The translations under genes were made by a program, and so were the position numbers. DNA of 64,000 nt from Octopus vulgaris (Eukaryota), in contig OX597817.1 of NCBI GenBank assembly GCA_951406725.2, forward strand, positions 102,052,001 to 102,116,000. Direction: 5' to 3'. The notes beneath the pieces were generated by a model. That model had not been told where the DNA came from. It did not search any database and saw only the letters and a program-made list of their open reading frames with translations. How positions within the stretch are numbered: position 1 is the stretch's first letter; every line of letters begins with the position of its first letter. Shown here one piece after another: positions 4,650 to 62,363 of this stretch.

Positions 4650-6084
4650 CTACTTTTGTTCCTCTCCTGACATCCTACACTTGAGCCTTTACTGCGAGGT
4701 TTGAGAATTTGGGAGGCGTCCCTAATAAAATCGGATGTGGTAAGTCTGCATATGCAGATGACATCACCATCACCGTGTCCAGTGAGGCTCGGTTACCTTG
4801 TATAGAGGATGCAATCAAGGGATACGAGGCGGTGGCAGGGCCGAAGTTAACAAGGACATGTCCATTGGCATGCGGCTCGGCACCTGGAGCGACAAAGTCG
4901 ATAACGTCCAGTGTCGTGGGACACTGGACAGATGGTCCTGTTAAGTTGCTTGGAGTTTGGTTTGGACTGGACTCCCAGACGCAGAAGAATTGGAGCGAGG
5001 CAGCAGGCAGGGTGGAGGCTCTAGTCCAGACTTGGTTTGGACGGGCGCTGTCCCTGAAAGGAAGGGTGGAGGTGGCACAGGTCTTCATTGCATCTGTTAT
5101 CACCTATCGTCTGACCGTTGTCCCTTGTCCCGATACGTGGCTGAGCAAGTTGGCACGACTCCTCTTTCGCTTGTTGTGGAAGGGAGGAAAGCTGCTTGTT
5201 TGCTGCCAGGAACTGCTAAAGGGTGGGTTAGAGATGCCGTGGCTGATGATGTGCAGACATGCACTGAGGCTAAGACATCTCTGGCTCTACATGGATGGTG
5301 GCCAGGTGTGGAATTCGCTTGCGGAAGAATTCTTTCCACGACCGGCTTCCTTGGAGGAATTTACTCCCGATTTGATTAAAAGACGGAACATGACTGGATG
5401 GCAAAAAGAGTGCCGACAGGCACTCGCGCTAATCCACATGGCGGGCAAAGCCGGCAGCGAGAATACCACCTCACTATTTTATAAAGGGATAGTAGAGTTT
5501 AAGAGGGACGACACTCTAGGAGAGACTCTGGGGTTCGATGAGAACCAGCTAACCAACCTGTTTCATAGAACTTTCAGATCGGGGTATTTGGATAATTACC
5601 AAAGATCCCTGACTTGGCAGTGCTATAGGAATGCATTATCCGTTCGAGATTATTTAGACACGGCATTCCAGTGTCACCGACATGCCCAAGGTGTGGGCAG
5701 GATGAGGAAACCGTCCTGCACGCTCTTGTACAGTGTCCGGAGATTTCCGGTTTGATAATTTACGTCGAACACGTTTTGTCGCAGCTAGAAAGAGTACAGC
5801 TGTCAGCTGAGTCTGTGATGAAGACTGTACCGCCGGCCGGACTTTCAAAGGAAGGTGAAGCATGTTTTCTCTGTATAGTCGCCGTTATGAAAGAGTGTAC
5901 TTGGAGGACCAGGATGAAAGGAGTCGCAACAGGAACCTTTATCTCCGGCCCAGGTTTGCTGTATTTCTTCAGATACCATCTGAGGAGCAAGATAGGGCTG
6001 GACAGAAGACATATTTCGCGAGGCATATATGAGAAAAGATGGAAGAATGTTGTGAAGAAGTTGGGAGTGATTGCCCCCACTTAA
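4650..6084 (+). mobile_element. Tx1/L1-clade LINE, 5'-truncated ORF2 (RT C-terminal half plus Cys-rich zinc domain), frameshifted
   Basis: SAYADDIT RT motif, VKLLGVWFG, LSLKGRV and RLLWKG in 4709..5755; CPRCGQDEETVLHALVQC zinc motif in 5671..6084; frameshift near 5650. Confidence 0.85.
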
Positions 6085-7175: not shown

Positions 7176-10100
7176 CACATTTCAAACAAACACAATAGGC
7201 AGCAGTGTAGATATTATCTCAAGACATAGGATGAAACATACCCACAAGCAGAGAACATGCCAGTACTGTAGTACAGAGCGTGAGTTCAATGACAGGAGGA
7301 AGTGTCCTGCATTTGGTACACACTGCAAATCATGTGGAAAGCCCAACCACCGGAAAAAATGTGTAGACTAACAAAATCTCACAAATACAAGCCCCAACTT
7401 TCAAAGAGGATCGGAAAGCGAAGACAAAGAGATGTACATGCCCAACAACAGGAACAAAACACTTTAGAGGAAGAATTCTTGGCAGTCGGCACAATAAATG
7501 TACATGAGATGGGAAATGACAACCGAAAAAAATGAGGCATACAAAACAATACAAATCCAAAAGAAGTCAGGCAAGAAACGAATAAACATTGACTTAAGGC
7601 TAAAGATTGACACTGGAACCCAGAGTGATGTCTTGCCTGTCAACCTCTACAAAAAGATGTTTCCAGAACACACGACACAATAGGATAAGGTCAAAGAAGG
7701 AATCCTCACACTAAGTGATGGAATCCTGACTACATATGGCTGTACCAGGATTCCACAACTGGGCAAAACAACCATTACAGGGACACACAAAGGAAGAAAA
7801 ATCAAGTGTTCTTTTTATGTCACAAGAATAGAAGGACTCGCAATTCTCGGACCTAATACCTATCAAAAGCTCAACATTGTGGCAATCAAAAGTTAAGGCA
7901 GTTCCGAGCAGGATTGACAGAGATAATGCCTATCAAAGACCGACCACCAGCTAGAAATAAAGATGAACTGATGAGCATATACCCAGAATGTTTTGATGAT
8001 ACAGTCGGATGTTTTGCAAAGTATCGGTACCATATAACATTCGACCCCAACGTCAAGCCAGTTGTCCACCCACCTCGCCGTGTTCCGCTTGAATTAAGAG
8101 AGAAGCTGAATGCTGAGTTGGACAGAATGGAAAAAAAATAACCACCAAAGTGACACGACCAACTGACTGGGTGAATTCAATTGTAATTAAAGAAAAACAC
8201 AATGATACTCTACGAATATGCCTTGACTCCTGGGATCTGAACAAGATTGCTATCCAATTCCAACCCTCGAAGAAATCACACCATCATTAGCTGAATCCAA
8301 GATATTCAGAAAACTGGATGCCAGTAATGGGTACTGGAATGTAAAGATAGACAAAGAATTATCCATGTTCACTACCTTCAACACACCATTTGGCAGATAC
8401 AGATTCAACCGACTCCCATTTGGATTGAAGGTGAGCCAAGATGTCTTCCAGCGCCAAGTAGATGAGACCTACCAAAGCTGCAAGGAGCGATCGGGATAGC
8501 GGACGATATCCAAGTGTATGGCAAGGGAACTCCTAGCAGACGTCTGTGGGAGTGAAAAGTTTCATACATATCTGTATAGCAGACATTTCAGTATTGAGTC
8601 AGACCATCGCCCTCTTGAACAAATAGACAGAAAAAAACTCACAAAAGCGCCAGCCAGACTGCAAAGGTTACTGTTGAGGTTCCAAAAATACGACTACAAT
8701 ATCAAGTACAAGCCAGGAAAGGACCTGATATTGGCGAATGCTCTTTCAAGACTATCATCACATGATAAACAGGAGATGGAAGGACTCAGTGTAAAGATCC
8801 ATCACATTGTAAATGTGACAAATACAAAGCAGGAACAAATCAAAGAGGAAACCAGCAAAGATGAACTCCAGCTTCTTACTCAGATGGTGATTCAGAGGTG
8901 ACCAGAGAAGCGACATCGGGTGTAGCCCCTCATTCGTGAATACTGGGCCATCCATGATGACATATCAGTAGATAATGGAGTCCTGATAGCTGGATCCCGA
9001 ATAATCATACCCAGATTAATGCAAAAAGAAATCCTTGACAAAATCCACCAAGGGCATCTGGGAATGCAAACTCCGAACCAAGTCAGCTGTATATTGTGTA
9101 GGTATGTACAAATACATAGAAAGGATAGTTTCTACATGCCACATCTGTCGAAAGTACAGAAACTCACAACAAAAGGAGGAAATGATACTCAGTGACATCC
9201 CAAGAAGGCCATGGCAAGCTTTTGGAGTAGATCTGCTCACAGAGAACCAAGAATGGTACTTGATTATGGTTTGCTACTATAAATTCCCACTTGTGGGAAA
9301 AATGAAAGACCTGAGAGTCAAAACAATGACTACAGTGGCTCGAGGACTTCTAGTAGAGCAAGGAATACCAGAGCAGATCATATGTGACAATGGAACCCAG
9401 TTCACATCTCAGGAATTCAAAAAGCTAGCCAATAAGTATGGGTTCAACATTATAACTTCATCTCCACACCACACCAAAGGTCATGGATTCATAGAAAGAC
9501 AGGTGCAGACAGCCAAGAGAACACTAGTCAAATACCAAGAAACTAAGGAAGACCCACACCTGGCACTTCTGTCCCTACGAGCAACACCACTGAGGGCTGA
9601 CATGAAGTCCCCAGCAGAAATGCCGAATGGCAGGAAATATAAAACCTCCCTGCCAACATAGATCCAACCTTCTATTGACCAAGAAGAGACAAGGGAAAAG
9701 CTAGCAGCCACTCAAGAACAAGGACAAAAATATTACAACAAACATGCACAATACTTACCTAAGATACTTGGAGGACAACATGTGCATACTCAAGATCCTA
9801 TAACCAAAACATGGATTCCATCACAAGTCGTCAGAGAATCTGAATCTGGTAGGGAGCTGAGACGAAACAGGGCCCACATCCGCCCAACACCAAAGCTATC
9901 AAAGATAACATGCGCAACACCTGCAGCATCAGTGGCAACACCAAGAACTACAACACCCACAGCAGATGACAGCACACACAGAATCATCACCTCAACGGGC
10001 ACCAACCATCCATCAGCAGCCCAATAACACAGCGACATTGCGCACATCTCAGATATCAGTGCAGAGCACAAGATCCACCAGATGGAAACCCAATATCTTA

Positions 10101-15879: not shown

Positions 15880-17290
15880 TCTGAAATCCAGATACAAACT
15901 GTTGTCCTTGAATGCCCGTAGTTTATGCAACAAGGTACATCTTTTTGACTCTTACGTCAAAAGTATCGACCCAGATTTCATCACAGTCACGGAAACATGG
16001 CACATTCTGCACTCTGTGATGGGGTTTTCAGCATAGCCGGCTACAACCTGTTCCGCAAAGACCGCATTAATCGCCGTGGAGGGGTTGTGATGGTTTATGT
16101 TCGATCAAATTTATCGGCAATTCCTTGTGATGATTTGAACCAATCTCAGCAGGAAGTATTTTTCTGCAATATACACATGACCATGTCAACACTTCTGCTT
16201 GGAGTTGTTTACCGCCCCCACCCCAAATTATCGTCAAGACACAATTTTTTGATATCCTCAGAGCTGCTGCCATGAAAACAGCCACTTATGTTTATATTGC
16301 GGGGGACTTCAATTTCCCTGAGATTGACTGGGAGGCCTTCCGTTGGCCGCAAAGTGCAGACGATTTCCTTGAACTGGTGCTGAATTCAAATTGGTCCCAA
16401 GTCGTTACCTCCCCCACTAGGGGTAACAACACTTTGGATCTGCTACTTACCGCTTCTCCTGAAACAATTATTAGTGTCACTACTGAAGAACCTTTAGGTG
16501 ACTCTGATCATTCCATGATCATGGCCGACTTGTCTCTGATTGGTTGTAACAAAAACCACAACCATCTTCAAACTGCCCGCTTTGACTGGAATAAAGCAGA
16601 CTGGAGCTTTTATAGTACTGAGCTGCGACGCCCAAACTGGCTCGAATTTTATGCCTCTGGAGATGTGAACACTATACTTCAGAACATTCTGAATTCAATA
16701 TGGGTGGCATGTGCAGCATCAGTACCACGCAAGCACAAAAAACCACCCAGTAGTACAATTTGGGAAACTGCAGCAGTCCGACTTGCCAGGAAATAACGCC
16801 GTAATGCTGAACAGGAATACAAATTGCACAAATCAGAGATCAACAGGAAAAAGCGTAATATATCAGCCAACTACCTCAAGCAGGTGACAAAAAAAGCAGT
16901 GTTTGAATTCGAACAACGCATAGCAACCAACCCTGACAGCAAAGTGTTGTGGAAATATGTACACTCAAAGCAGAGACCTCACTCTCCAGTTGGTCCCCTT
17001 CACAATCCCCACACAGGGCAGATTACTGGCAATCCCAAAGAATGTGCAGAAATCATTGCTGGATGCTACGCAGGCATCTTTACTGTCGAAGATCAAAATG
17101 TTCCATCTCCATCACCTCTGATACCGGACTCTATATCTTCTATGAAGTTTACACCAGCAATGCTACACCGACACCTTAAGAATAAACGCAAATATGCCTC
17201 TCCTGGTCTCGATGGTGTTACATACCTACTTCTCAAACGCGGTGGGTACTTTTTTCTAAACCAACTTTCACTATTCTTCCAATTCTGTAT
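15880..17290 (+). mobile_element. CR1/L2-group LINE ORF2 fragment (APE endonuclease to start of RT), degenerate
   Basis: LSLNARSL, PDFITVTETW, FRKDR..RRGG, GDFNFPEIDW, PTRGNNTLDL, SDH and SPGLDG across ORFs 15719..17309. Confidence 0.85.
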
Positions 17291-17299
17291 TGTATTTTC

Positions 17300-18044
17300 A
17301 TGCATATAGTTACATATCTAGACATGCTCATATATATTTAAATGGAAACTTTTACAGATTTCTACAGTTCCAGTGATGGATTGGATCTGTAGTCTTCAAA
17401 TTAGCTTTCTCCTTTCTGGTTTTGAGAAGCCTAATTTCTCAACATTGGTATTTAGGCAGTGTTATATATCCCAGGGTCCCAATAATTACATGTATAAACA
17501 TGTACTTGTAATCTGGATAGAGTAACTGCAGATTTCTCAATAGTTCTCTTTTTCACTGATCTTCAGCTATATGTTAACATCTGCTGGGTAGCTAATTTTC
17601 ACAACTGTGCACAATTTCTCTTCTCTATCCCAAATCATTATATCAGGTATATTGTGCTTACATTTTATTGAGGTTTTCACTGGGACATCCCACCAGTATT
17701 CCTTTTTGTTTTGAGTGGATATGGCTTCTACCATGTTGTGGGTTCTTATTTCTTTGTCCTCGGGGTTATCCTTCCGACGGATTTCATTATAGAGTGTCGT
17801 AGCTACAACGTCATGTCTCATCGGTAGATGATACCGTGATGACATTTTCGGACAACTGCTTATGATGTGGGCGATATCTTCAGTGTGAAATCCAGAAAGT
17901 ATGCATGGGTTGTCATATTTTACTGCTTTTCCTGCATCTCTATTCCTTTTGTGCATCAGGTACTTGGTTGATATTGTCTGTTCCTGGATTGCAACAGCAT
18001 ACTCTCAAAGTGGGAGGTTGTAATCCTGCTATTGGTCCATGATA
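17300..18044 (-). mobile_element. R4/Dong-like non-LTR retrotransposon 3' end (CCHC plus restriction-like endonuclease)
   Basis: C..E...HIISSC, RHDVVA and KHNIPDIMIWD motifs; homologous to 51374..52250. Confidence 0.8.
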
Positions 18045-20235: not shown

Positions 20236-21365
20236 TCTGGTTGTCCGGTAAGTTCTGAGCTATTTCAGGACTTGTGTCTTTAAGTCCTTCATGCAACAAT
20301 CCTTATCTTTGTATGACTCACATTTCACGTTAAAAGGCAGCATATATTTTACTCCTTTCAGCCCTAATTACCATTTTGAAATGGATAACCGAAAGTTGCA
20401 TATTCTCCACGTAATGCTTTTCTTCTTCAAAATATGGTGAGAATGCTGCGAAAATGTGTAATATCATTTGTGGAGTTTATGGTGAAGATGCTATTGGTGA
20501 ATCAACTGTTCAAAGATGGTTTGCAAAATTTAGATGTGGTGAGTTCAGCTTGGAAGATGACAATCGCTGTGGAAGACCTTCAACCTTAGATGACGATATT
20601 TTGAAGCTAACCATTGAAGAAAACTCGAATATTACGACTTGAGAACTTGCGGAGAAGTTGGAAGTTTCCAAAAGTACCATTCATGAACACTTAGTGTAAA
20701 TTTGATATGTTTCTCGCAATAATGCTTGGGCGCCTCACAAACTGTCTGAACAAAACTGCATGGACTGGTATCCTATTTGTGATATGCTTCTGAAACAATG
20801 AAAATAAGCCTTTCCTGAAACAATTGGTAATTGGAGATGAAAAATGAATTGTTTACGATAATAATACGAAAAAGATCCTGGAGTAAGGATCCTCGAAAAC
20901 ACCTAAATCAGAATTTAAAAAAAGTCATGCTTTGTATCTATATTTATTATGAGCTATTCCCACAAAATAAGATCATCAATTCTGGTGTGTACTGCCGTCA
21001 GCTAGCAAATTTGAATCAAAAGATCAAGGAACTGGGGCCAGCACTCTCCAACAGGAAAGAAGTTGTGTTCCACGAGGACAATGCCCGACTGCATGTGTCT
21101 TTGACTACCCGCACAAAGTTGCATGAACTTGGGTGGGATCTCTTGCCTCATCCACCATACTCCCCTGACATTGCGCCATCTGACTATTATTTGTTTTTGT
21201 CTCTGCAAAACTTTTGAAAAGGAAAATCATTTAATGATTTAGATGGTGTCAAATCCCACTTAGATGACTATTTTTCCTAAAAAACAACTGTGGTTTATGC
21301 CGATGGAATATTTAAATTGCCTGTTAAGTGGACTAAGATCATAGAAAACAATGGAAATTAATGAA
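20236..21365 (+). mobile_element. Degenerate mariner element
   Basis: HTH region (TVQRWFAKFRCGEFSLEDDNRCGRP), FHEDNARLH, LPHPPYSPDIAPSDYYLF; many stops; left TIR-like sequence after TA. Confidence 0.85.
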
Positions 21366-23252: not shown

Positions 23253-23625
23253 TAAAAAGGGATGGGGTCCTTCTACAGTGGTAAGTAGGGTGTGTCTTGG
23301 TGAAAGTAAATTTAGCATTTGGTTCTTTCCGGAAGGGAGAGTTAATAAAAACGATTACCAGTGTGGTGTTGGCGGTCGGTGTTATGGGACGTGATGAGCT
23401 ATGTGGTGTTGGTGGGGAGGATGACAGATGAGGTGGGCGGAAGTAGGGCTTGCAGGGGCCGGCGGAAGACTGAAGGGTGCATGCGTGGCAGGAAGCGGAT
23501 GTGGTCAAGGAGGAAACACGTGTGGTCAGCGAGGAAGCGGGGCAGTTCCAGCATAGACGGCAAAGCTACAGGACGTGTTGAATTCGTGAGAGACCGCTGT
23601 TCGGCTCATAAAAAAAAACCCAACG

Positions 23626-24381
23626 ATGAGTGCCCGTATTTCCAACGAGATGATCAAACCATTTTGCGGTGACACATATGTAGTCGCTTGGTTGAAGAAG
23701 GTGAAGTTGGTCGCGAAGCTCCACGGTATAAGCGACCTAGCGAGTTTTATACCGCTGTACTTGGATGGTCCGGCATTGGCGTTGTATCTAGAGATGGAAG
23801 AGAAGGACCAACTTAGCGCGGAGAAAGTAGAAATCCGGTTGATGGAGGCCTTTGCGGAGGGAATGTTTGAGGCATACGCTCGCCTGGGGAAAACAAGATG
23901 GACTGGGGAACAGGTTGATGTATTTGCCAATGAACTCAGGAGATTGGCTAAACTGGCGGGTTATGAGGGAGAGTCGCTGGACCGGACGGTTAAGTTGGCG
24001 TTTGTGACTGGCTTTCCTGACAACATGTCGGTCGAGTTGCAGCAGCTTCCGAACATTCATTCGATGGCGATGGCAGACATCGTATCTCGGGCACGCGTTC
24101 TAGTTTCGTGCAGTAGAACGACGTCAGTAGCAGCGACTGCAACAACGAAAAGTGGTCGAGCTAGGAGCAGCGGAGAGGGGTCGAAGAAAGAACGTGTGCG
24201 ACCATTCAAAGGACAGTGTTTCCGGTGCCAGGGTCCGCACATGGTGCGAGACTGCGAGTCACTCAAGCCTGAGGTCATTTGCTACCGGTGTCGAGAAACG
24301 GGGCATATAGCCAGCGAATGTCTGCGGGGAAACGGACTGAGGGAGACTACTGCGTCGGTAGTTGTCCCTTTGGATCAATAG
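23626..24381 (+). CDS. gag: Gag with two CCHC zinc knuckles
   Basis: Open 251-aa ORF; CFRCQGPHMVRDC and CYRCRETGHIASEC. Confidence 0.85.
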   Translation: MSARISNEMIKPFCGDTYVVAWLKKVKLVAKLHGISDLASFIPLYLDGPALALYLEMEEKDQLSAEKVEIRLMEAFAEGMFEAYARLGKTRWTGEQVDVFANELRRLAKLAGYEGESLDRTVKLAFVTGFPDNMSVELQQLPNIHSMAMADIVSRARVLVSCSRTTSVAATATTKSGRARSSGEGSKKERVRPFKGQCFRCQGPHMVRDCESLKPEVICYRCRETGHIASECLRGNGLRETTASVVVPLDQ

Positions 24382-24388
24382 AGGCGCG
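24327..24388 (+). promoter_or_regulatory. -1 programmed ribosomal frameshift signal (G GGA AAC plus predicted pseudoknot)
   Basis: Slippery heptamer in gag frame; pol in the -1 frame; 6-nt spacer; stem agggagactac/gtagttgtccct; loop tgcgtc can pair with ggcgcg at 24383-24388. Confidence 0.75.
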
Positions 24389-27225
24389 TTTATCGTCACT
24401 ACCTGTAGCCGACATTCTGGTGGAGGGGAAGATGTCGCGAGACCTTGTGGACACGGGCTGTACGACAACCCTGATGACTCCAGAAGTGGTAGAGACGTGG
24501 AGTGGGGAAAGCAGTGTAAGAGCAGTCGACGGAAGAGAAGTACACTGTGAAGGTGTTACAGATGCGCAGATTGTAGTGCAGGGAATAAGGCTGACGCTGC
24601 GAGCAATTGTAGTTGGCTACTTGGTGGACGAGATTGACGTGATAATGGGGTTGGATGCAATCACCCGTTTGGGAGGTGTCACTGTTAACGAGGCCGGTGT
24701 AACGTTCGGGTTTGCGGGGAAACCGTGTATGGCGAGACCATGCACTGGTGACAACCGTGAGGAAAAGCATGCTGCACACACCATTAAAGACCAGGATTTT
24801 CGGGCTGTCTTCGATGGTCAGAGGTGGACAGTGGAGTGGCACTGGAAAGGAGAGCCCCCGATGTTAAAGAATAAAGTGGACTGCTATCAGCATACTCTAA
24901 AAGGAGATGCCAGAAGTGAGTTCGAGGGGGAGGTAATGCGGTGGATTAAGGAGGGTATATTGATCCCTTGGGAAAAAGAAGAGAGCGGAGTCCTGCCACT
25001 GATGGCGGTGATATAGCCCACAAAGCATAAGGTCAGGCCAGTGCTTGACTTCCGAGAGCTGAATGACCACGTATCATGTTATACAGGCGGCAAGGCCACA
25101 GATGTCTGCGGAGACACCTTGCGAGAGTGGAGGCAGATGACAGGGGCCTCCACGATCGTTTATTTGAAGTCGGCATACCTACAGGTGCATGTGGCTGAGA
25201 AACTGTGGAAGTACCAGCTTGTCAGGTATAAGGGCCGGACGTACTGTCTGACCAGGTTGGAGTTCGGGCTGAATTCAGCGTCAAAGGTTATGGCAACAAT
25301 TCTCAAGGCCATCCTGGGAAAGGTGGACAGGGTAAAAAAGGCCACCAATTCGTACATTGATGATATTCTGGTGGATGAAACCGTAATGCCAGCAACGGAG
25401 CTCATAGGCCACCTGAATAGTTTTGGACTGATCGCCAAGCCACAAGAGGCAATGGAGGGAGGTGCTGCACTGGGCCTCAAGCTATGGAGAGACAAGGCCG
25501 GCGCGTTGGTGTTCCGGCGAGGGAATGAGATCCCCGAACTGGGTGCCAGCATGAGTAGACGGGAACTGTTCTCTGTGTGGGGGAAGCTGGTGGGACACTA
25601 CCCGATTGCAGGATGGTTCCGGACAGCATGTAGCTTCATCAAGAGACGAGCTGAAGGAGTGAAGTGGAACGATAGAGTGGGGGAAAAGACGACCGACATG
25701 ATACAGGAAGTCTTGGTCAAAGTAAGAGCAGAGGACCCGGTGAGGGGCAGTTGGTATGTTCCCAAATCAATGAGCGGGATTGTATGGTGTGACGCCAGTA
25801 GAATCGCAATAGGGGTTGTCTTAGAAGTGGGAGGTGTCATGGTAGAAGATGCAGCCTGGCTCAGGAAGACGGATGACTGCAATCATATCAATGTGGCGGA
25901 GTTGGATGCCGTGTTGAAGGGTGTGAACCTAGCCTTGAAGTGTGGGTTGCATACCATAGAAATCAGAACTGATTCAGCCACTGTACTTGGTTGGATGACA
26001 GCAGTCATCACTAATGAGCGGAGGGTGCGGACCAAAGGGGCTGCAGAGATGCTGGTAAAGCGTCGATTGGGGATACTGCGTGAACTAGCCACTGAGTTCA
26101 ATCTGAAGCTGAGCGTGATATTTGTGCCTTCCGAGAAGAACAGGGCGGACGTCCTGACCAGGGTAAAGCGAGCCTGGTTACAGGTGCCAGAGGATGTGAA
26201 GCAGGCTGTAGCTGCAGTATGCCGTCTGAGTGATTCGGAGTTGCGGAGATTGCATACCATGCATCACATGGGGGTGGACAGGACATAGTTCCTAGCCAGA
26301 AAAGTTGACTCGATGTAACAAGACTCGATGTGCAGAGAGTGGTTAGCAGCTGTGACAGGTGCCAGTCCATCGACCCTGCTCCGGGCGTACATGAGGCGGG
26401 AAGTATTCCAGTGGACCACGACTGGAAACGACTGGCGGTGGACATAACACACAGGGGACATAACTCTCAATGGTTGACTGCGGACCGGGGCGGTTGGCCA
26501 TATCGAAGGAGATGAAGATGGGGACCGTAGAGGAAATTGTGAAAGTATTGAATGAGATATTCCTGGAACGAGGCCCCGTGGATGAACTGCTTCTGGATAA
26601 TGACACTGCATTTCGCTCGGAGGTGCTGAAAGAAATGTTTGATGGGTGGAAGGTCAACCGCTTCTTCAGGGCGGCATACCGGCCAAGTGGAAATGGGTTG
26701 GTGGAAAGGCATCATCGTACCATCAAGACCATGGCAGAGAGGGGCCACATTTCACCAATCGCGGCTGTATTTTGGTATAATATGTCACCCAGATCAGGAC
26801 AGGCTGAGGAGTCGGTGCCACACAGAGCAATATTCAGGTACGAGTGGAGGCATCCGTGTACTGCATCAATGTGACCCGGGGCAGAGGAAGAGCACGCCTT
26901 CGTGCAGGTCGGGGAAGAAGTTTGGGTAAAACCCCCAAACGCACGGTGTACATCACGATGGGGAAAGGGAACAATAACCTCTATAAATTCGAAGAACATC
27001 TCTGTCGATGGTATGCCACGCCACGTTTTGGATATACGGAAGATTGTCCATGCCTCAGAGGATGGAACCAGCAGCAGTGGGAAAGAAGATGAAGACAACA
27101 ACAGTAGACAAGATGATGAAGCCAGCAGCAACATGCCAGGAACCAAGGCCAGTCCTTGGGTCGGACTGCGACCACAGAGGGAACGGCACCCTCCTCCCTG
27201 GTTGGCTGATTATGAAACCAGTTAA
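24333..27225 (+). pseudogene. pol: Pol (protease, RT, RNase H, integrase) with stops and frameshifts
   Basis: LVDTG protease; LDFRELN and YIDD RT; WCDAS/ELDA/TDS RNase H; H..H...CDRC and DDE integrase; stops at about 25014, 26286 and 26872. Confidence 0.85.
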
Positions 27226-32034: not shown

Positions 32035-34145
32035 GACACCAACCATGCTCTTCGTTTGTTCAACGCTTTCTCCTTTCCTCCTGGCCCCTCTAAACTTCTC
32101 TTCACCTTTGACATCAAGAGTGTATACACGGTGATCCCTCACCAGGAGGGCCTGCGTGCACTCCAGCATTTCCTTGACCTTCAACCCAACCCCAGCCTGA
32201 CACATCCACACTACTTCGTCTGGCCAAACTTGTCCCCTCACTTAACTGCTTCTCGTTCGCGGGTGATTTTTACCAGCAGTTCGCGGGAGTGGCCATGAGA
32301 ACGAGAATTGGCTGCGTTGAGGCCCAAATATTCTCAAGTTTCACTGGTCCTTAACTATACGGTTGTTATATTGGTGATTGTATCGGTGCGACTTCACTCT
32401 CCCGCGAACATTTAGACTCTTTCCTCTCTTTTGTCAAATCTTTCCATCCTGCCCTCCACTTCTCCTGCTCTATTTCCGACACCTCAGTCCCCTTTCTCGA
32501 CATTTCGGTCAGCACTCCTCACTCCACTCTCACCACCTCCCTCCACTACAAACACACAGACTCACACTCATGCCTCAACTTTTCCTCCTCCCACCCTAAA
32601 CCCACCAAACTCTCCATCCTCTATTCTCATTTCCTCCCTCTATGCAGGCTCTGCAGTGACAACCATGATTTTGAGACTCAGTCTCAACTTATGGCTCGCC
32701 ACTTCATCCTACGTGGATATCCTCTCACCACTATACACACCGCCCTTGCCAGAGCACGTTCTGTGGACTGTGCATCTGCTCTCTCCCCCGCATCCGCCCC
32801 GCAGTCACCCGTTTCCCCTCACATACCACCCCACCACCCTACCTCTCTAACACACCATTCTCGAGCCTTCCGGCGACTCCAGTCCAACCTTTCCATTTCG
32901 CATAGCCTCCCTAACCGACTCCTCCCCTCCTTCAAACGATCCCACAACTTTCGGGACCTCCTGGTCCACAGCTTCTTCTCTAAGCCAACCTCCCAACCCG
33001 GCTCGTTCCCCTGCTCCTGCCCACGCTGCTGCACTTAACCTTACCTCTCCGATATCATCCTCCTCACAGGCACTCATCATTGACCCTATCATATCACTGA
33101 CTACTTCACCTGCACTTCTAGCAACGTCATCTACTGCATCTCCTGCTCTCTTTATACATCGGTCGAACGGGACACCGCTTTGCCGACCGGTTCGCGGAAC
33201 ACCTCCGAGACATCCGACTCGGTAACGACACCCCCGTCTCGCGCCATTTCCACTCTACCGGTCACTCTTGTCCTTGCACAGGGGCCATCCGGACTCCCGT
33301 CTTCACGGTGAGCAGGGATTAATCTTCTCTCTTCATTCCTTTGCGCCACATAGGCTCAACTCTATTCATCTAACCCTCCTCCTCTCTCCTCTCTTCCTTT
33401 CACACCTACTTCCGCCCACCCACCTCTCCTCTCTTGCCCTGGCACCTACTTCCTCTCTTCACACCTACCCACCTTCTCCCTTCCACCCTCTCCCTCCATC
33501 GTTACCCTACCCTACACATTCCAACCCTACCATCCCTATACATTACATCCCACCCCACCCCATCCATTAGACCCCACCCTTTCTTCCCCCACTTTCGCTT
33601 CCCCCATACCCCAACACCATCACACCACACCACACACCACCAAACCACGCACCACCACACCACACACCACCACACCACCACACAACACACCACTACAACA
33701 CACACCGCATCACACCACCCCGCACACAGTATCACTGACCACTTCCCAGCACCCACACCGGCGCACACACTATCACTGACTACTTCCCATACACCTACAC
33801 ATGCACACACGCACACGTCAATGTCACCAGCCCCCTTCCACACGTACATACACGCTCTCACATACGCACGCATGCGCACCTTCATTTTGGGATCATCGCT
33901 ACTTTATTACCTCCCCTTCTTCCTAGCTCTCCTGTGTGACCCCTCTGTCTGGCATTCGCCATGATAGATCGCTAGCCACCAAACCTTTTTCTGTTTTCTC
34001 TTCTTGTTTATTTCTGTGTTCCTTTCTGTCGACGAGCGTAGGCTCGAAACGTAAAAGACTTTCTCACTTCCCAGGCGTTAAACTAATTCATCTGTTTGTT
34101 GTTTTCACACCCGTCTTCCTTTATTTTTTTTTGTAAATTCTCACT
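32035..34145 (+). mobile_element. Penelope-like element, 5'-truncated (RT plus GIY-YIG plus tail), degenerate
   Basis: LLFTFDIKSVYTVIPH, GVAM, PFLDISV, RGYP and FTCTSSNVIYCISC..YIG.TG..FA.RF.EH; hammerhead-like motif at 34022-34057; (TA)n on both sides. Confidence 0.85.
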
Positions 34146-48366: not shown

Positions 48367-48764
48367 GCTACTACCGATTATTTTTTGCTCAACTTATACT
48401 AACTGGACTTCTATTCAAATAGAATATATTTCATTATTAAATCTCAGAACGAGATGTAAACAGTAATCGCTCGACAACGTAAAGTATTATAGCCATCTCA
48501 AGATGGCTAACCACAAAGGGGGGTGTTACTGTAGCTTGTAGCCCCAGGAGATCATCGTCTCCAGCTGGCTTTAGACACAATTTCTGTGCTCTTATGGTAT
48601 TTGCAAAGGGAGGCCATCCCTTTCTCGTAAGCCTAAGTGATACGCACCGGACCGCGGTTTCGAGATTATTGTCTCTTAGTTTTTCGAAATCAGTGGCAGA
48701 AATCACTAGAAAAACTCTTATATATTTGCAAACAGGCCTTGTCTTTCATCGTGATCCGGTGATT

Positions 48765-48813
48765 ACCGCCCGTTGATAAGAGACAATAATCTCGAAACCG
48801 CGGTTCGGTGCGT
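48765..48813 (+). ncRNA. Type I hammerhead ribozyme motif, U3-A8 core
   Basis: ccg-TTGATAA-gaga(caataa)tctc-GAAACCGCG-GTT-cgg; stem III palindrome ACCGCGGT; predicted cleavage after 48805. Confidence 0.75.
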
Positions 48814-49118
48814 ATCACTTAGGCTTAGGAGAAAGGGATGGCCTCCCTTTGCAAATACCATAAGAGCACAGAAAGTGTGCCTAAAGCCAGCTGGAGACGA
48901 TGATCTCCTGGGGCTAAAAAGCTACAGTAACACCCCCCTTTGTGGTTAGCCATATTGAGATGGCTATAATACTTTACATTGTCGAGCAATTACTGTTTAC
49001 ATCTCGTTCTGAGATTTAATAATGCTTGCAGTCAGTTTTTCGAAATCAGTGTCAGAAGTCACTAGAAAAAGTCATATATTTGCAAACAGGCCTTGTCTTT
49101 CATCGTGATCCGGTGATT

Positions 49119-49167
49119 ACCGCCCGTTGATAAGAAACAATAATCTCGAAACCGTTGTCCGGTGCGT
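49119..49167 (+). ncRNA. Second type I hammerhead motif, U3-A8 core
   Basis: ccg-TTGATAA-gaaa(caataa)tctc-GAAACCGTT-GTC-cgg; predicted cleavage after 49159. Confidence 0.65.
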
Positions 49168-49401
49168 ATCACTTAGGCTTAGGAGAAAGGGATGGCCTCC
49201 CTTTGCAAATACCATAAGGGCGCAGAAATTGTCTAAAGCCAGTTGGAGACGATGTTCTCCTGGGGCTAAAAAGCTACAGTAACACCCCACTTTGTGGTTA
49301 GCCATATTGAGATGGCTATAATACTTTACATAGAATATATTTCATCCCACATTTAACATCTCTATCATAGCCGATACTTCGTTTACTAACCATAAGTATG
49401 T

Positions 49402-51164: not shown

Positions 51165-52250
51165 TATCCCGTCGACAACATCTTTAACCACCAAGTGTCG
51201 AAGTACATCCCTTGACCAAGTTTGCATACATGAGGCTGATAACATCATAAGACTTGGAAGGCAGTTCTTTGAGCAACATTCTTTGTCTGATAACCATTCT
51301 TTGTCTGATAACATGCCCAAACAAGTCGCACAACTCTACCACAACGTATGATCAGATGCAAGGATGAGCCTATATGAGCAGAAGATTATGCATGGCTATG
51401 TTAGTAGAAAGCTCCGTGATGATAGTAACATCGATCATCAAAGCAGTTTATCATGGACCATGGAACAATAGCCGGATTACTACCTCCCGCTTTGAAGGGT
51501 ATGCGTTTGCAATCCAGGAACAGGAAATATCAACCAAGTACCTGATGTACAAAAGGGATAGAGATGCAGGAAAAGCAGTAAAATGTGATAACCGATGCAG
51601 ACTTTCTGGAGTTAAAACCGAAGATGTTACTCACATCATAAGCAGTTGTACGAAAATGTCATCATGGTATCATCTACCGATGAGACATGATGTTGTAGCT
51701 AGGACACTCTACAATGAAATCCGTCGGAAGGATAACCCCAAGGACAAAGAAATAAGAACCCACAGTATGGTAGAAGCCATAGCCACTCATAATAAAAAAG
51801 AGTACTGGTGGAATGTCCCAGTGAAAACCTCAATAAAATGTAAGCACAACATACCTGATATAACGATTTGGGATAGAGAAGAGAAACTGTGCACAGTTGC
51901 GGAAATTAGCTGCCCAGCGGAGATGTTAAACATAAAGCTGAAGATCAGTGAAAAAGAGAATACCTACGCTGAACTAATAAGAAATCTGAAGTTACCCTAT
52001 CCATATTACAAATTCAGGTTTATACCTGTAATTATTGGGGCCCTGGCATATGTAACACACTGCCTAAATATCAATTAGGTTTCTCAAAACCAGAAAGGAG
52101 AAAGCCAATTTGAAGACTACAGATCCAATCCATCACTGGAACTGTAAAAATCTGTAAAACTTTCCAGAAATTTATAATTTGAATATATATGGGCATGTCT
52201 AGATATGCAACTATATGGATGAGAATACATAAAGCAAAACATGCAAATCT
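51165..52250 (+). mobile_element. R4/Dong-like non-LTR retrotransposon, 5'-truncated (CCHC plus REL endonuclease)
   Basis: ORF 51374..52078: AIQEQEIST, CRLSG..EDVTHIISSC, RHDVVA, KHNIPDI, EISCP, K...Y; tail runs into (CATA)n. Confidence 0.85.
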
Positions 52251-61480: not shown

Positions 61481-61519
61481 GAGTTTTCCTACGGATCCCT
61501 TTTAATATATTTATCCTTA

Positions 61520-61564
<45 letters not shown>

Positions 61565-61566
<2 letters not shown>

Positions 61567-62363
61567 TCCTGGGTGATGAGTCCTTATTGAGTAGCGACAC
61601 TGTCCTTACCAATTCCAACCTAACATACAATAATAATAATAATAATAATAATAATAGAAATAGTATTGATATTAGCAACATTCATAGCAGCATTGGCGTT
61701 AACAATAGTAATAATGATAATAACATTAGCCGGATTATTAACAGTGGTGGTGTTAGTGGTAGTAGTAACAGCATTTCTAATAACAGTTGTATTACTGATG
61801 ATAACAATCACAGCATTCCTATAGTCAGAGAAATTGCCGACGATATTACAATTAATAATAATGATAATAAGATGAATAGTATTGTGGCCAATGCTAGCAA
61901 CAATATTTACACCTATCATAACAATAAAAACTCTGTCTTAGTATCGGAAGTTAACCCCAACAGATTAAAGTTCTTATCCAAAAATTCCAAAATTAGAAAC
62001 ACCATTTACCAGTGCAAAATTTCTTCTGGAACCGATGTCTTCTTCTACATTGGAGCAACTTTTTCTAAATTAGCTCAAAGGATCTCCAATCATTATTCAA
62101 CTTTCCGAGATAAGAGAAAACAACACAGCACGGGACTAAGTAAATTAGTTTGGCGTCTGAAGGACAGCAACACAACTTTCAAGCTGGAATGGTCCATATT
62201 GTCGGTGTCTTTTCCGTTTGATAAGGGCAGAAAACTTTGTGGCATCTGTAATTTCGAACTTTTTCATATTTTGTTCGCCAAAGTCCCTTTAATAAATACA
62301 ATCGTCGAGAGGTCCTACAGGTGCATGCACTGGCAAAAACACACCTTTCATTCATATGAATAA
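61565..62363 (+). CDS. PLE-type GIY-YIG endonuclease ORF with Asn-rich N-terminal region, no RT visible
   Basis: TIYQC...FYIGAT...RISNH..TF...LSK.VW.LK...CGIC...CMH; open frame from the (TA)n tract. Confidence 0.75.

Follow-up and report, generated by a model that had tools for sequence, protein, structure and literature searches.

The insert at positions 48419 to 49345 of the window, the whole 64-kb stretch of Octopus vulgaris DNA analysed here, is very probably an ageing copy of a dispersed, non-coding hammerhead repeat of about 355 bp that is likely copied by Penelope-like elements (PLEs), that is, a non-autonomous retrozyme. Judged by its sequence-level features, the element belongs to the known animal non-LTR retrozymes. 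A first-pass annotation of the window had proposed a PLE-mobilised non-coding hammerhead element. At the level of the family this proposal is well supported by covariation, by a unit that wraps around and by two fixed ends, but no partner with matching ends was found among the four PLE families that we examined.

Anatomy of the insert and its hammerheads

Two identical copies of a 16-bp target-site duplication (TSD) bracket the insert on the forward strand, at 48419 to 48434 and at 49330 to 49345, and the 16-mer has no third occurrence on either strand of the window, in agreement with the first-pass annotation, which had described a 16-bp direct repeat around the insert. The last 3 nt of the left TSD double as what we call the long end of the element and the first 2 nt of the right TSD as its short end. 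Between them lies first an inverted, 5'-truncated arm of 247 bp (48432 to 48678, reverse strand), whose length matches the earlier description of about 247 bp; it covers unit positions 100 to 347, is 96% identical to unit 1 and has the long end as its outer end. Of the two direct units described before, the first is a full 356-bp unit of family A (48678 to 49033, forward strand), but the second is partial (49034 to 49331, forward strand, 298 bp, 94% identical to unit 1), stopping at position 302 of 356 with the short end as its outer end. Likewise, the spacing of 354 nt reported for these units holds for the hammerhead cores, but the true period is 356 bp, unit 2 having a 2-nt deletion. The predicted cut-to-cut monomer spans 354 nt (48806 to 49159, forward strand).

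A hairpin at 48947 to 48966 (forward strand), present in all four families described below, recurs at 49299-49318 and, inverted, at 48490-48509. The first-pass annotation placed the end of the unit near a small hairpin; the hairpin is not the unit end but precedes the short end, one of two preferred insertion ends, by about 14 nt. The 45 nt between these two ends (unit positions 303 to 347; 48980 to 49024, forward strand) form a "tail," which contains another small hairpin common to the families.

The insert appears to be non-coding, as claimed before: it holds no open reading frame of at least 120 aa, one low-complexity frame starting inside the right TSD, and the longest ATG frame is 42 aa when the family A unit is read as a circle and 41 to 56 aa for the circular units of all four families. 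The unit has a G+C content of 0.43. No LTR-bounded layout is visible at the insert, its array is absent from the list that the tandem repeat finder TRF gave for the window, and a search of the genome with the left flank for an empty site returned this locus as the sole match. Within unit positions 14 to 52 (window 48691-48729), all four families keep a motif of seven bases together with a hairpin and a TATA-like sequence, which could be a promoter or structural signal. With simple consensus patterns, which are crude, for the internal polymerase III boxes of tRNA- or 5S-derived SINEs, a B box was found in no unit and a single A-box-like match in family D.

Both direct units carry a type I hammerhead on the forward strand, at 48759 to 48818 and 49113 to 49172, and the core positions (48773 and 49127) and predicted cut sites (after 48805 and 49159) given in the first-pass annotation were reproduced. 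The features of this class for which the sequence was tested are present, namely a core with its 3-8 pair, the GAAA, an NUH triplet and helices I to III. The core of both hammerheads is UUGAUAA, a U3-A8 variant rather than C3-G8. Hammerhead 1 has a 4-bp stem II, a palindromic stem III and a GUU triplet, which is GUC in most family copies. Hammerhead 2 has a mismatch in stem II and two changes that disrupt the stem III palindrome; the self-duplex of its stem III 8-mer is computed at -0.3 kcal/mol, versus -14.1 kcal/mol for the intact sequence and -6.3 kcal/mol for the mixed duplex. Rfam model Hammerhead_HH9 matches hammerhead 1 at 32.0 bits (E 6e-6) and hammerhead 2 at 25.4 bits (E 8e-4) in a scan of 981 bp, both under the gathering score of 52. 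An Rfam scan of the whole window listed neither of the two, only microsatellite look-alikes, all of them likewise under gathering.

From these changes, hammerhead 2 is likely to be impaired. The inverted arm contains a third hammerhead that is without the first four core bases, and in the predicted fold of the whole insert 237 nt of this arm pair with unit 1, so that most of ribozyme 1 is buried. The release of a 354-nt monomer or circle from this locus appears doubtful, given the damage to ribozyme 2 and given that, in a read-through RNA, ribozyme 1 would be covered by the inverted arm. The locus is probably a dead or weak, ageing copy.

Elsewhere in the window, a decayed block resembling an LTR retrotransposon occupies 23590-27000, with a zinc knuckle identified by Pfam and with protease, reverse transcriptase (RT) and integrase-like frames recognised by eye. 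Broken transposon-like frames at 4685-6084, 8500-10027, 16134-17309, 17567-18004, 20831-21217 and 51368-52078 were labelled LINE-like, LTR-like or mariner-like from a reading of their translations only.

A dispersed lineage of hammerhead repeats

The first-pass annotation had proposed a check of copy number. In the Octopus vulgaris genome (2.80 Gb, 227 contigs), the family A unit is dispersed, with 3290 first-look candidates on many contigs, 40 of which were scored. The family A hammerhead pattern matched the genome 144 times at up to one mismatch, against 0 for the control, and all 84 exact matches carried U3-A8, although the pattern permitted C3 and G8. The lineage comprises at least three further families. 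Family A (356-bp unit, U3-A8 core) is joined by family B (352 bp, C3-G8; 2083 candidates, with 97-98% identity within the best 40 hits), family C (358 bp, mostly U3-G8) and family D (351 bp, C3-G8), with pairwise identities of 53-81%. An end motif common to the families, located near the 3' end of the unit, has 1993 genome matches versus 3 for the control. No long tandem arrays of the unit were seen; the longest direct run is about 2.5 units, and the tandem dimers also found at three other loci (L021, L065 and L078) are part of short arrays.

Diverged relatives of the unit, about 72-75% identical to B or D, occur at L204:735-1005, L237 and L322, and the families therefore number more than four. 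A pattern search for hammerheads whose stem III is a six-base palindrome gave 1453 genome matches (70 in the control); this set covers families C and D together with many diverse single motifs (L212, L221, L223, L226, L230-L234).

Conservation of the hammerhead was assessed on 28 sequences, chosen from a pool of 76 extracted ones and six D-like loci. In this alignment 91.7% of cells are paired, against 29-50% in slid controls, and compensatory change on both sides is found in 16 of 18 hammerhead pairs, a value reached in none of 500 shuffles; the 28 sequences represent few related groups, and these covariation counts refer to cells rather than to independent events. The 3-8 pair is C-G in 12 sequences, U-A in 12 and U-G in 4, and is thus paired in 28/28, and the catalytic columns of the core are invariant across families. 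A helix across the unit junction that is present in single folds is missing from the consensus fold.

The isolated family A hammerhead has a minimum free energy fold that is not the active shape, with a z score of only -1.4. Such a result is to be expected of a weak palindromic stem III, which would work as a dimer (PMC4209133). Folded as a circle, the predicted family A monomer reaches -99.0 kcal/mol (z -3.9 from 100 shuffles; reverse strand z -1.3), and the predicted family B monomer has a z score of -8.7 (reverse strand, -6.4). Family A and B sequence is also contained in assembled contigs of sequencing runs guessed to be RNA, a type of record that cannot show strand, ends or circles; the depth of these contigs is shaped like that of a large run of unknown type, so that their presence has no bearing on expression.

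Insertion ends and a proposed route of copying

The outer ends of the insertions cluster at two sites, at about unit positions 301-309 and 343-355, some 45 nt apart, each preceded by a small hairpin that is present in all four families. The spacing of the two ends, that is, the tail, is about 43-47 nt in families A, B and C and about 55 nt in D, compared with the 30-40 nt reported for PLEs. To count how these ends combine, we took the first 100 end-motif matches listed on contig C1, in order, and fetched 87, the 13 left out being second motifs of one insertion or already-sampled loci, including three multi-unit ones; after removal of two same-insertion duplicates, 85 loci remained (B 43, C 19, D 13, A 10). 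Ends were classed as short at positions 291-309 and as long at 336-357, or just beyond the junction in D. Head-to-head inverted insertions made up 49 of the 85 loci, and 45 of these 49 had one short and one long end, none had two long ends and 4 had one end elsewhere, in a sample whose selection requires the tail motif and hence under-represents insertions with two short ends. Among inverted insertions picked by similarity, one of each end was found in 18/24 for family A (44 loci) and in 13/15 for family B (29 loci), the rest having one end elsewhere. Two of the C1 loci, L247 and L248, lie about 373 kb apart and share the same arm coordinates and identities; they probably reflect a segmental duplication.

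Non-simple TSDs were seen at 14 of the 44 A loci (8-16 bp) and at 5 of the 29 B loci (12-13 bp); at the remaining A and B loci the TSD is absent or lies within a microsatellite, many of them in (TA)n. Divergence is 0.037 within and 0.056 between insertions; for 49 of 60 inverted pairs and 26 of 32 tandem pairs it is lower than the median between insertions. This likeness fits the use of one template per insertion, though it is confounded by age and gene conversion.

The same likeness of parts within an insertion would also be produced by duplication or gene conversion, and one might thus imagine that a single inserted copy was duplicated and inverted locally, at the DNA level, to give the layout, or that the unit is a satellite or MITE-like DNA element. 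This we consider very improbable. A single TSD surrounds the whole insert, no host flank apart from the TSD has been duplicated along with the unit, and the same two outer ends recur at dozens of unrelated loci in four families, with inner junctions that vary freely. The fixed, paired ends largely refute such an origin.

The footprint is instead the one known from endonuclease-positive PLEs (PMC8557442, PMC3846280, PMC11167929), whose reported insertions likewise include partial tandems and an inverted 5'-truncated copy, usually with the tail at one end, together with TSDs (8-16 bp in the octopus), A+T-rich targets, a hammerhead and two starts of reverse transcription. PLE marks described in PMC8557442 and PMC3846280 include an inverted copy, a tail that is often at one end only and TSDs of 8-10 bp. 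For the anole PLE it is reported that reverse transcription begins in vitro at two neighbouring internal positions, which mark the bounds of the tail, and that both strands of A+T-rich DNA are cleaved (PMC11167929). PLE mobilisation of the octopus unit is supported because the insertions combine two fixed ends, 5' inversion and TSDs of 8-16 bp, because the hammerhead covaries and because the unit is self-contained, wraps around and is free of homology to the untranslated ends of the four PLE families examined.

Based on these features, we propose that a PLE protein, through its reverse transcriptase and GIY-YIG endonuclease, would copy the unit into the genome. It would nick A+T-rich DNA on both strands, at positions about 8-16 nt from each other, and each nick would prime reverse transcription at one of the two internal RNA starts, as for the anole PLE (PMC11167929). 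The two cDNAs would then be joined head to head, which would account for the inverted layout of the insert. Intact family members are predicted to self-cut, and those of family A would do so as dimers held together by the palindromic stem III; by analogy with the coral, mussel and axolotl retrozymes (PMC7229834), a host ligase would close the cut monomers into circles, which would act as rolling templates. Speaking against too firm a prediction, in vitro cleavage has been reported for only 1 of 9 Xenopus retrozyme dimers (Li et al. 2026, 10.64898/2026.07.22.740005).

Among 138 arms examined, 55 extend across the cut site and 19 are longer than 360 nt, and no pile-up of 5' ends is found at the cut site. 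Reverse transcription thus passes through the cut site, and we infer that the template would be a re-ligated circle or an uncut multimer rather than a cut linear monomer.

Possibly, the repeat is mobilised by PLEs while its hammerhead serves as a binding or folding signal, with little or no cutting in the absence of protein, with uncut multimers as templates and no circle involved. The lack of any insertion boundary at the cut site would fit such a role, as would the anole PLE hammerhead, which reportedly needs protein to cut and whose cleavage is dispensable for insertion in vitro (PMC11167929). Moreover, the family A and C cores deviate from C3-G8, stem I of family A has a mismatch or bulge, and column 16-55 is unpaired in 15 of the 28 aligned hammerheads. 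However, the catalytic bases do not vary even between families with as little as 53-66% identity, and the 3-8 pair is kept in every sequence. Also, arms of more than one unit would need multi-unit templates, yet multi-unit source loci are few and short, and the comparable coral, mussel and axolotl retrozymes cut and form circles, as reported in PMC7229834. We consider a hammerhead that hardly cuts to be somewhat unlikely and favor a PLE-copied repeat that is predicted to cut itself.

Penelope-like elements and the place of the unit among retrozymes

The window itself holds fragments of two PLE families, at 32355-33038 and 61506-62363 (an RT part and an endonuclease end), and for each of them the genome has more than 10,000 first-look candidates. 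We sampled four PLE families by way of these fragments, of a nested copy and of the GIY-YIG profile (L031-060 with L135-136; L091-105 with L132-134 and L137; L106-131; and L168-207). The unit shows no homology to the PLE ends or pLTRs in the 117 locus records from these families. The unit was hit in three of these records, of which L031 holds the studied insertion itself, L039 a family B copy that is nested, and L204 a related copy that lies nearby on the opposite strand. Conversely, when five PLE proteins were searched by tblastn against the 177 locus records of the retrozyme families, which include some duplicates, 14 gave hits; six of these records were read in detail and four more compared by position only. 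In the six (L009, L018, L165, L269, L282 and L322), the retrozyme copy has inserted into a decayed PLE, next to one or tail-to-tail with one, and at L009 its 10-bp TSD splits a PLE coding frame. The link between unit and PLE frame for which the first-pass annotation had suggested a search is thus absent from both the 117 PLE and the 177 family locus records.

These results bear on the possibility that the unit is no more than the terminal repeat (pLTR) of some autonomous PLE outside our sample, of which the window would hold a 5'-truncated stump; the first-pass annotation had named a similar reading, with the pLTR of a known PLE, as part of what would overturn it. All insertion marks are PLE-like, and Xenopus retrozymes are described as resembling pLTRs (Li et al. 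2026). Furthermore, an octopus repeat annotation lists 31 recently active PLE families, and the genome probably has more PLE families than the four that we examined, among which no autonomous partner with matching ends was found. Nevertheless, copies that extend upstream enter the previous unit, up to about 2.5 units, with no PLE frame leading in, the four families show no pLTR homology to the unit, and the records read in detail are mere neighbors or nested insertions. An origin of the unit as a pLTR stump therefore seems improbable to us compared with a non-autonomous element that a PLE copies.

A candidate partner is provided by a young PLE family (L198-L207 and L168-L197) with a 781-codon open frame in ten copies, containing RT and GIY-YIG domains. 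It carries a U3-A8 minimal hammerhead near its 3' end, uses (TA)n targets and has a tail of about 39 nt. The short-plus-long layout of the unit insertions recurs in an inverted copy of this family, L203. Its candidacy is based on these shared habits and not on shared sequence. A protein search with the 781-codon frame returned distant relatives only. A long A-rich stretch upstream of this frame looks coding. By eye, a second PLE family (L132:6100-6280 and L322) has a C3-G8-like hammerhead with a very long stem II, and by end counts its copies (L132, L322) end at two sites about 150 nt apart. Tails of 30 and 33 nt considered for two PLE families were rejected as run-on of the alignment into (TA)n, and no tail was found in seven ends of the other of those two families.

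Conceivably, a single PLE dimer on one small circular RNA makes each insertion, its subunits starting at two hairpin-marked sites 45 nt apart and being primed by opposite target strands. Priming from opposite strands at two sites would lead to the strict pairing of short and long ends, and a circular template would allow the cDNAs to run round more than once. The retrozymes of 352-358 nt would then be minimal templates, the 781-codon PLE their likely mobiliser, and the 3-8 pair of the lineage would have walked through C-G, U-G and U-A while mobile. We put this forward tentatively.

Similar to animal non-LTR retrozymes as described in PMC7229834 and by Li et al. (2026), the octopus element has a non-coding unit in the range of 150-450 bp with one type I hammerhead, a G+C content below 50% (here 43%), head-to-tail copies, a TSD of more than 4 bp and PLEs in the same genome. 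Its size is near that reported for the mussel (350-390 nt) and axolotl (330 and 350 nt) retrozymes, and a short palindromic stem III is likewise shared with the described elements. In contrast to these described retrozymes, the octopus copies are mostly dispersed and truncated, with no more than about 2.5 direct units and no long arrays seen, two of the families have U3-A8 and U3-G8 cores, and a full PLE footprint has been measured. The unit differs from PLEs in having no RT or endonuclease frame, and from the hammerheads described for PLEs in keeping a canonical two-part stem I and a 4-bp stem II. The covariation of U3-A8 for C3-G8 in the core is the same as in the minimal hammerheads of the Schistosoma PLE Cercyon (PMC4209133). 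However, Cercyon is reported to have U3-A8 in minimal pLTR hammerheads that are mostly single, whereas the octopus hammerhead with U3-A8 is canonical in shape, sits in a unit that is non-coding and has relatives of the same lineage with C3-G8 and U3-G8.

In the open-licence literature we came across no account of a cephalopod family of this kind. The words "ribozyme" and "hammerhead" do not occur in the main text of the octopus repeat annotation, and a squid genome paper gives 235 Rfam hammerheads as a count only. PLE mobilisation of animal retrozymes has been argued previously from hammerheads that the two have in common, from their co-occurrence and from resemblance to pLTRs (PMC7229834; Li et al. 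2026).

In summary, while the locus itself is ordinary and decayed, the insertion footprint of the lineage is itself PLE-like, as counted over dozens of loci, and ties in with the two starts of the anole PLE in vitro. The rule of one short and one long end offers a testable constraint on how PLE integration is completed, a step that the account of the anole PLE in PMC11167929 leaves unresolved. With its short template, its natural series of C-G, U-G and U-A at the 3-8 pair and the intact PLE frames that share its genome, this lineage makes a compact test system.
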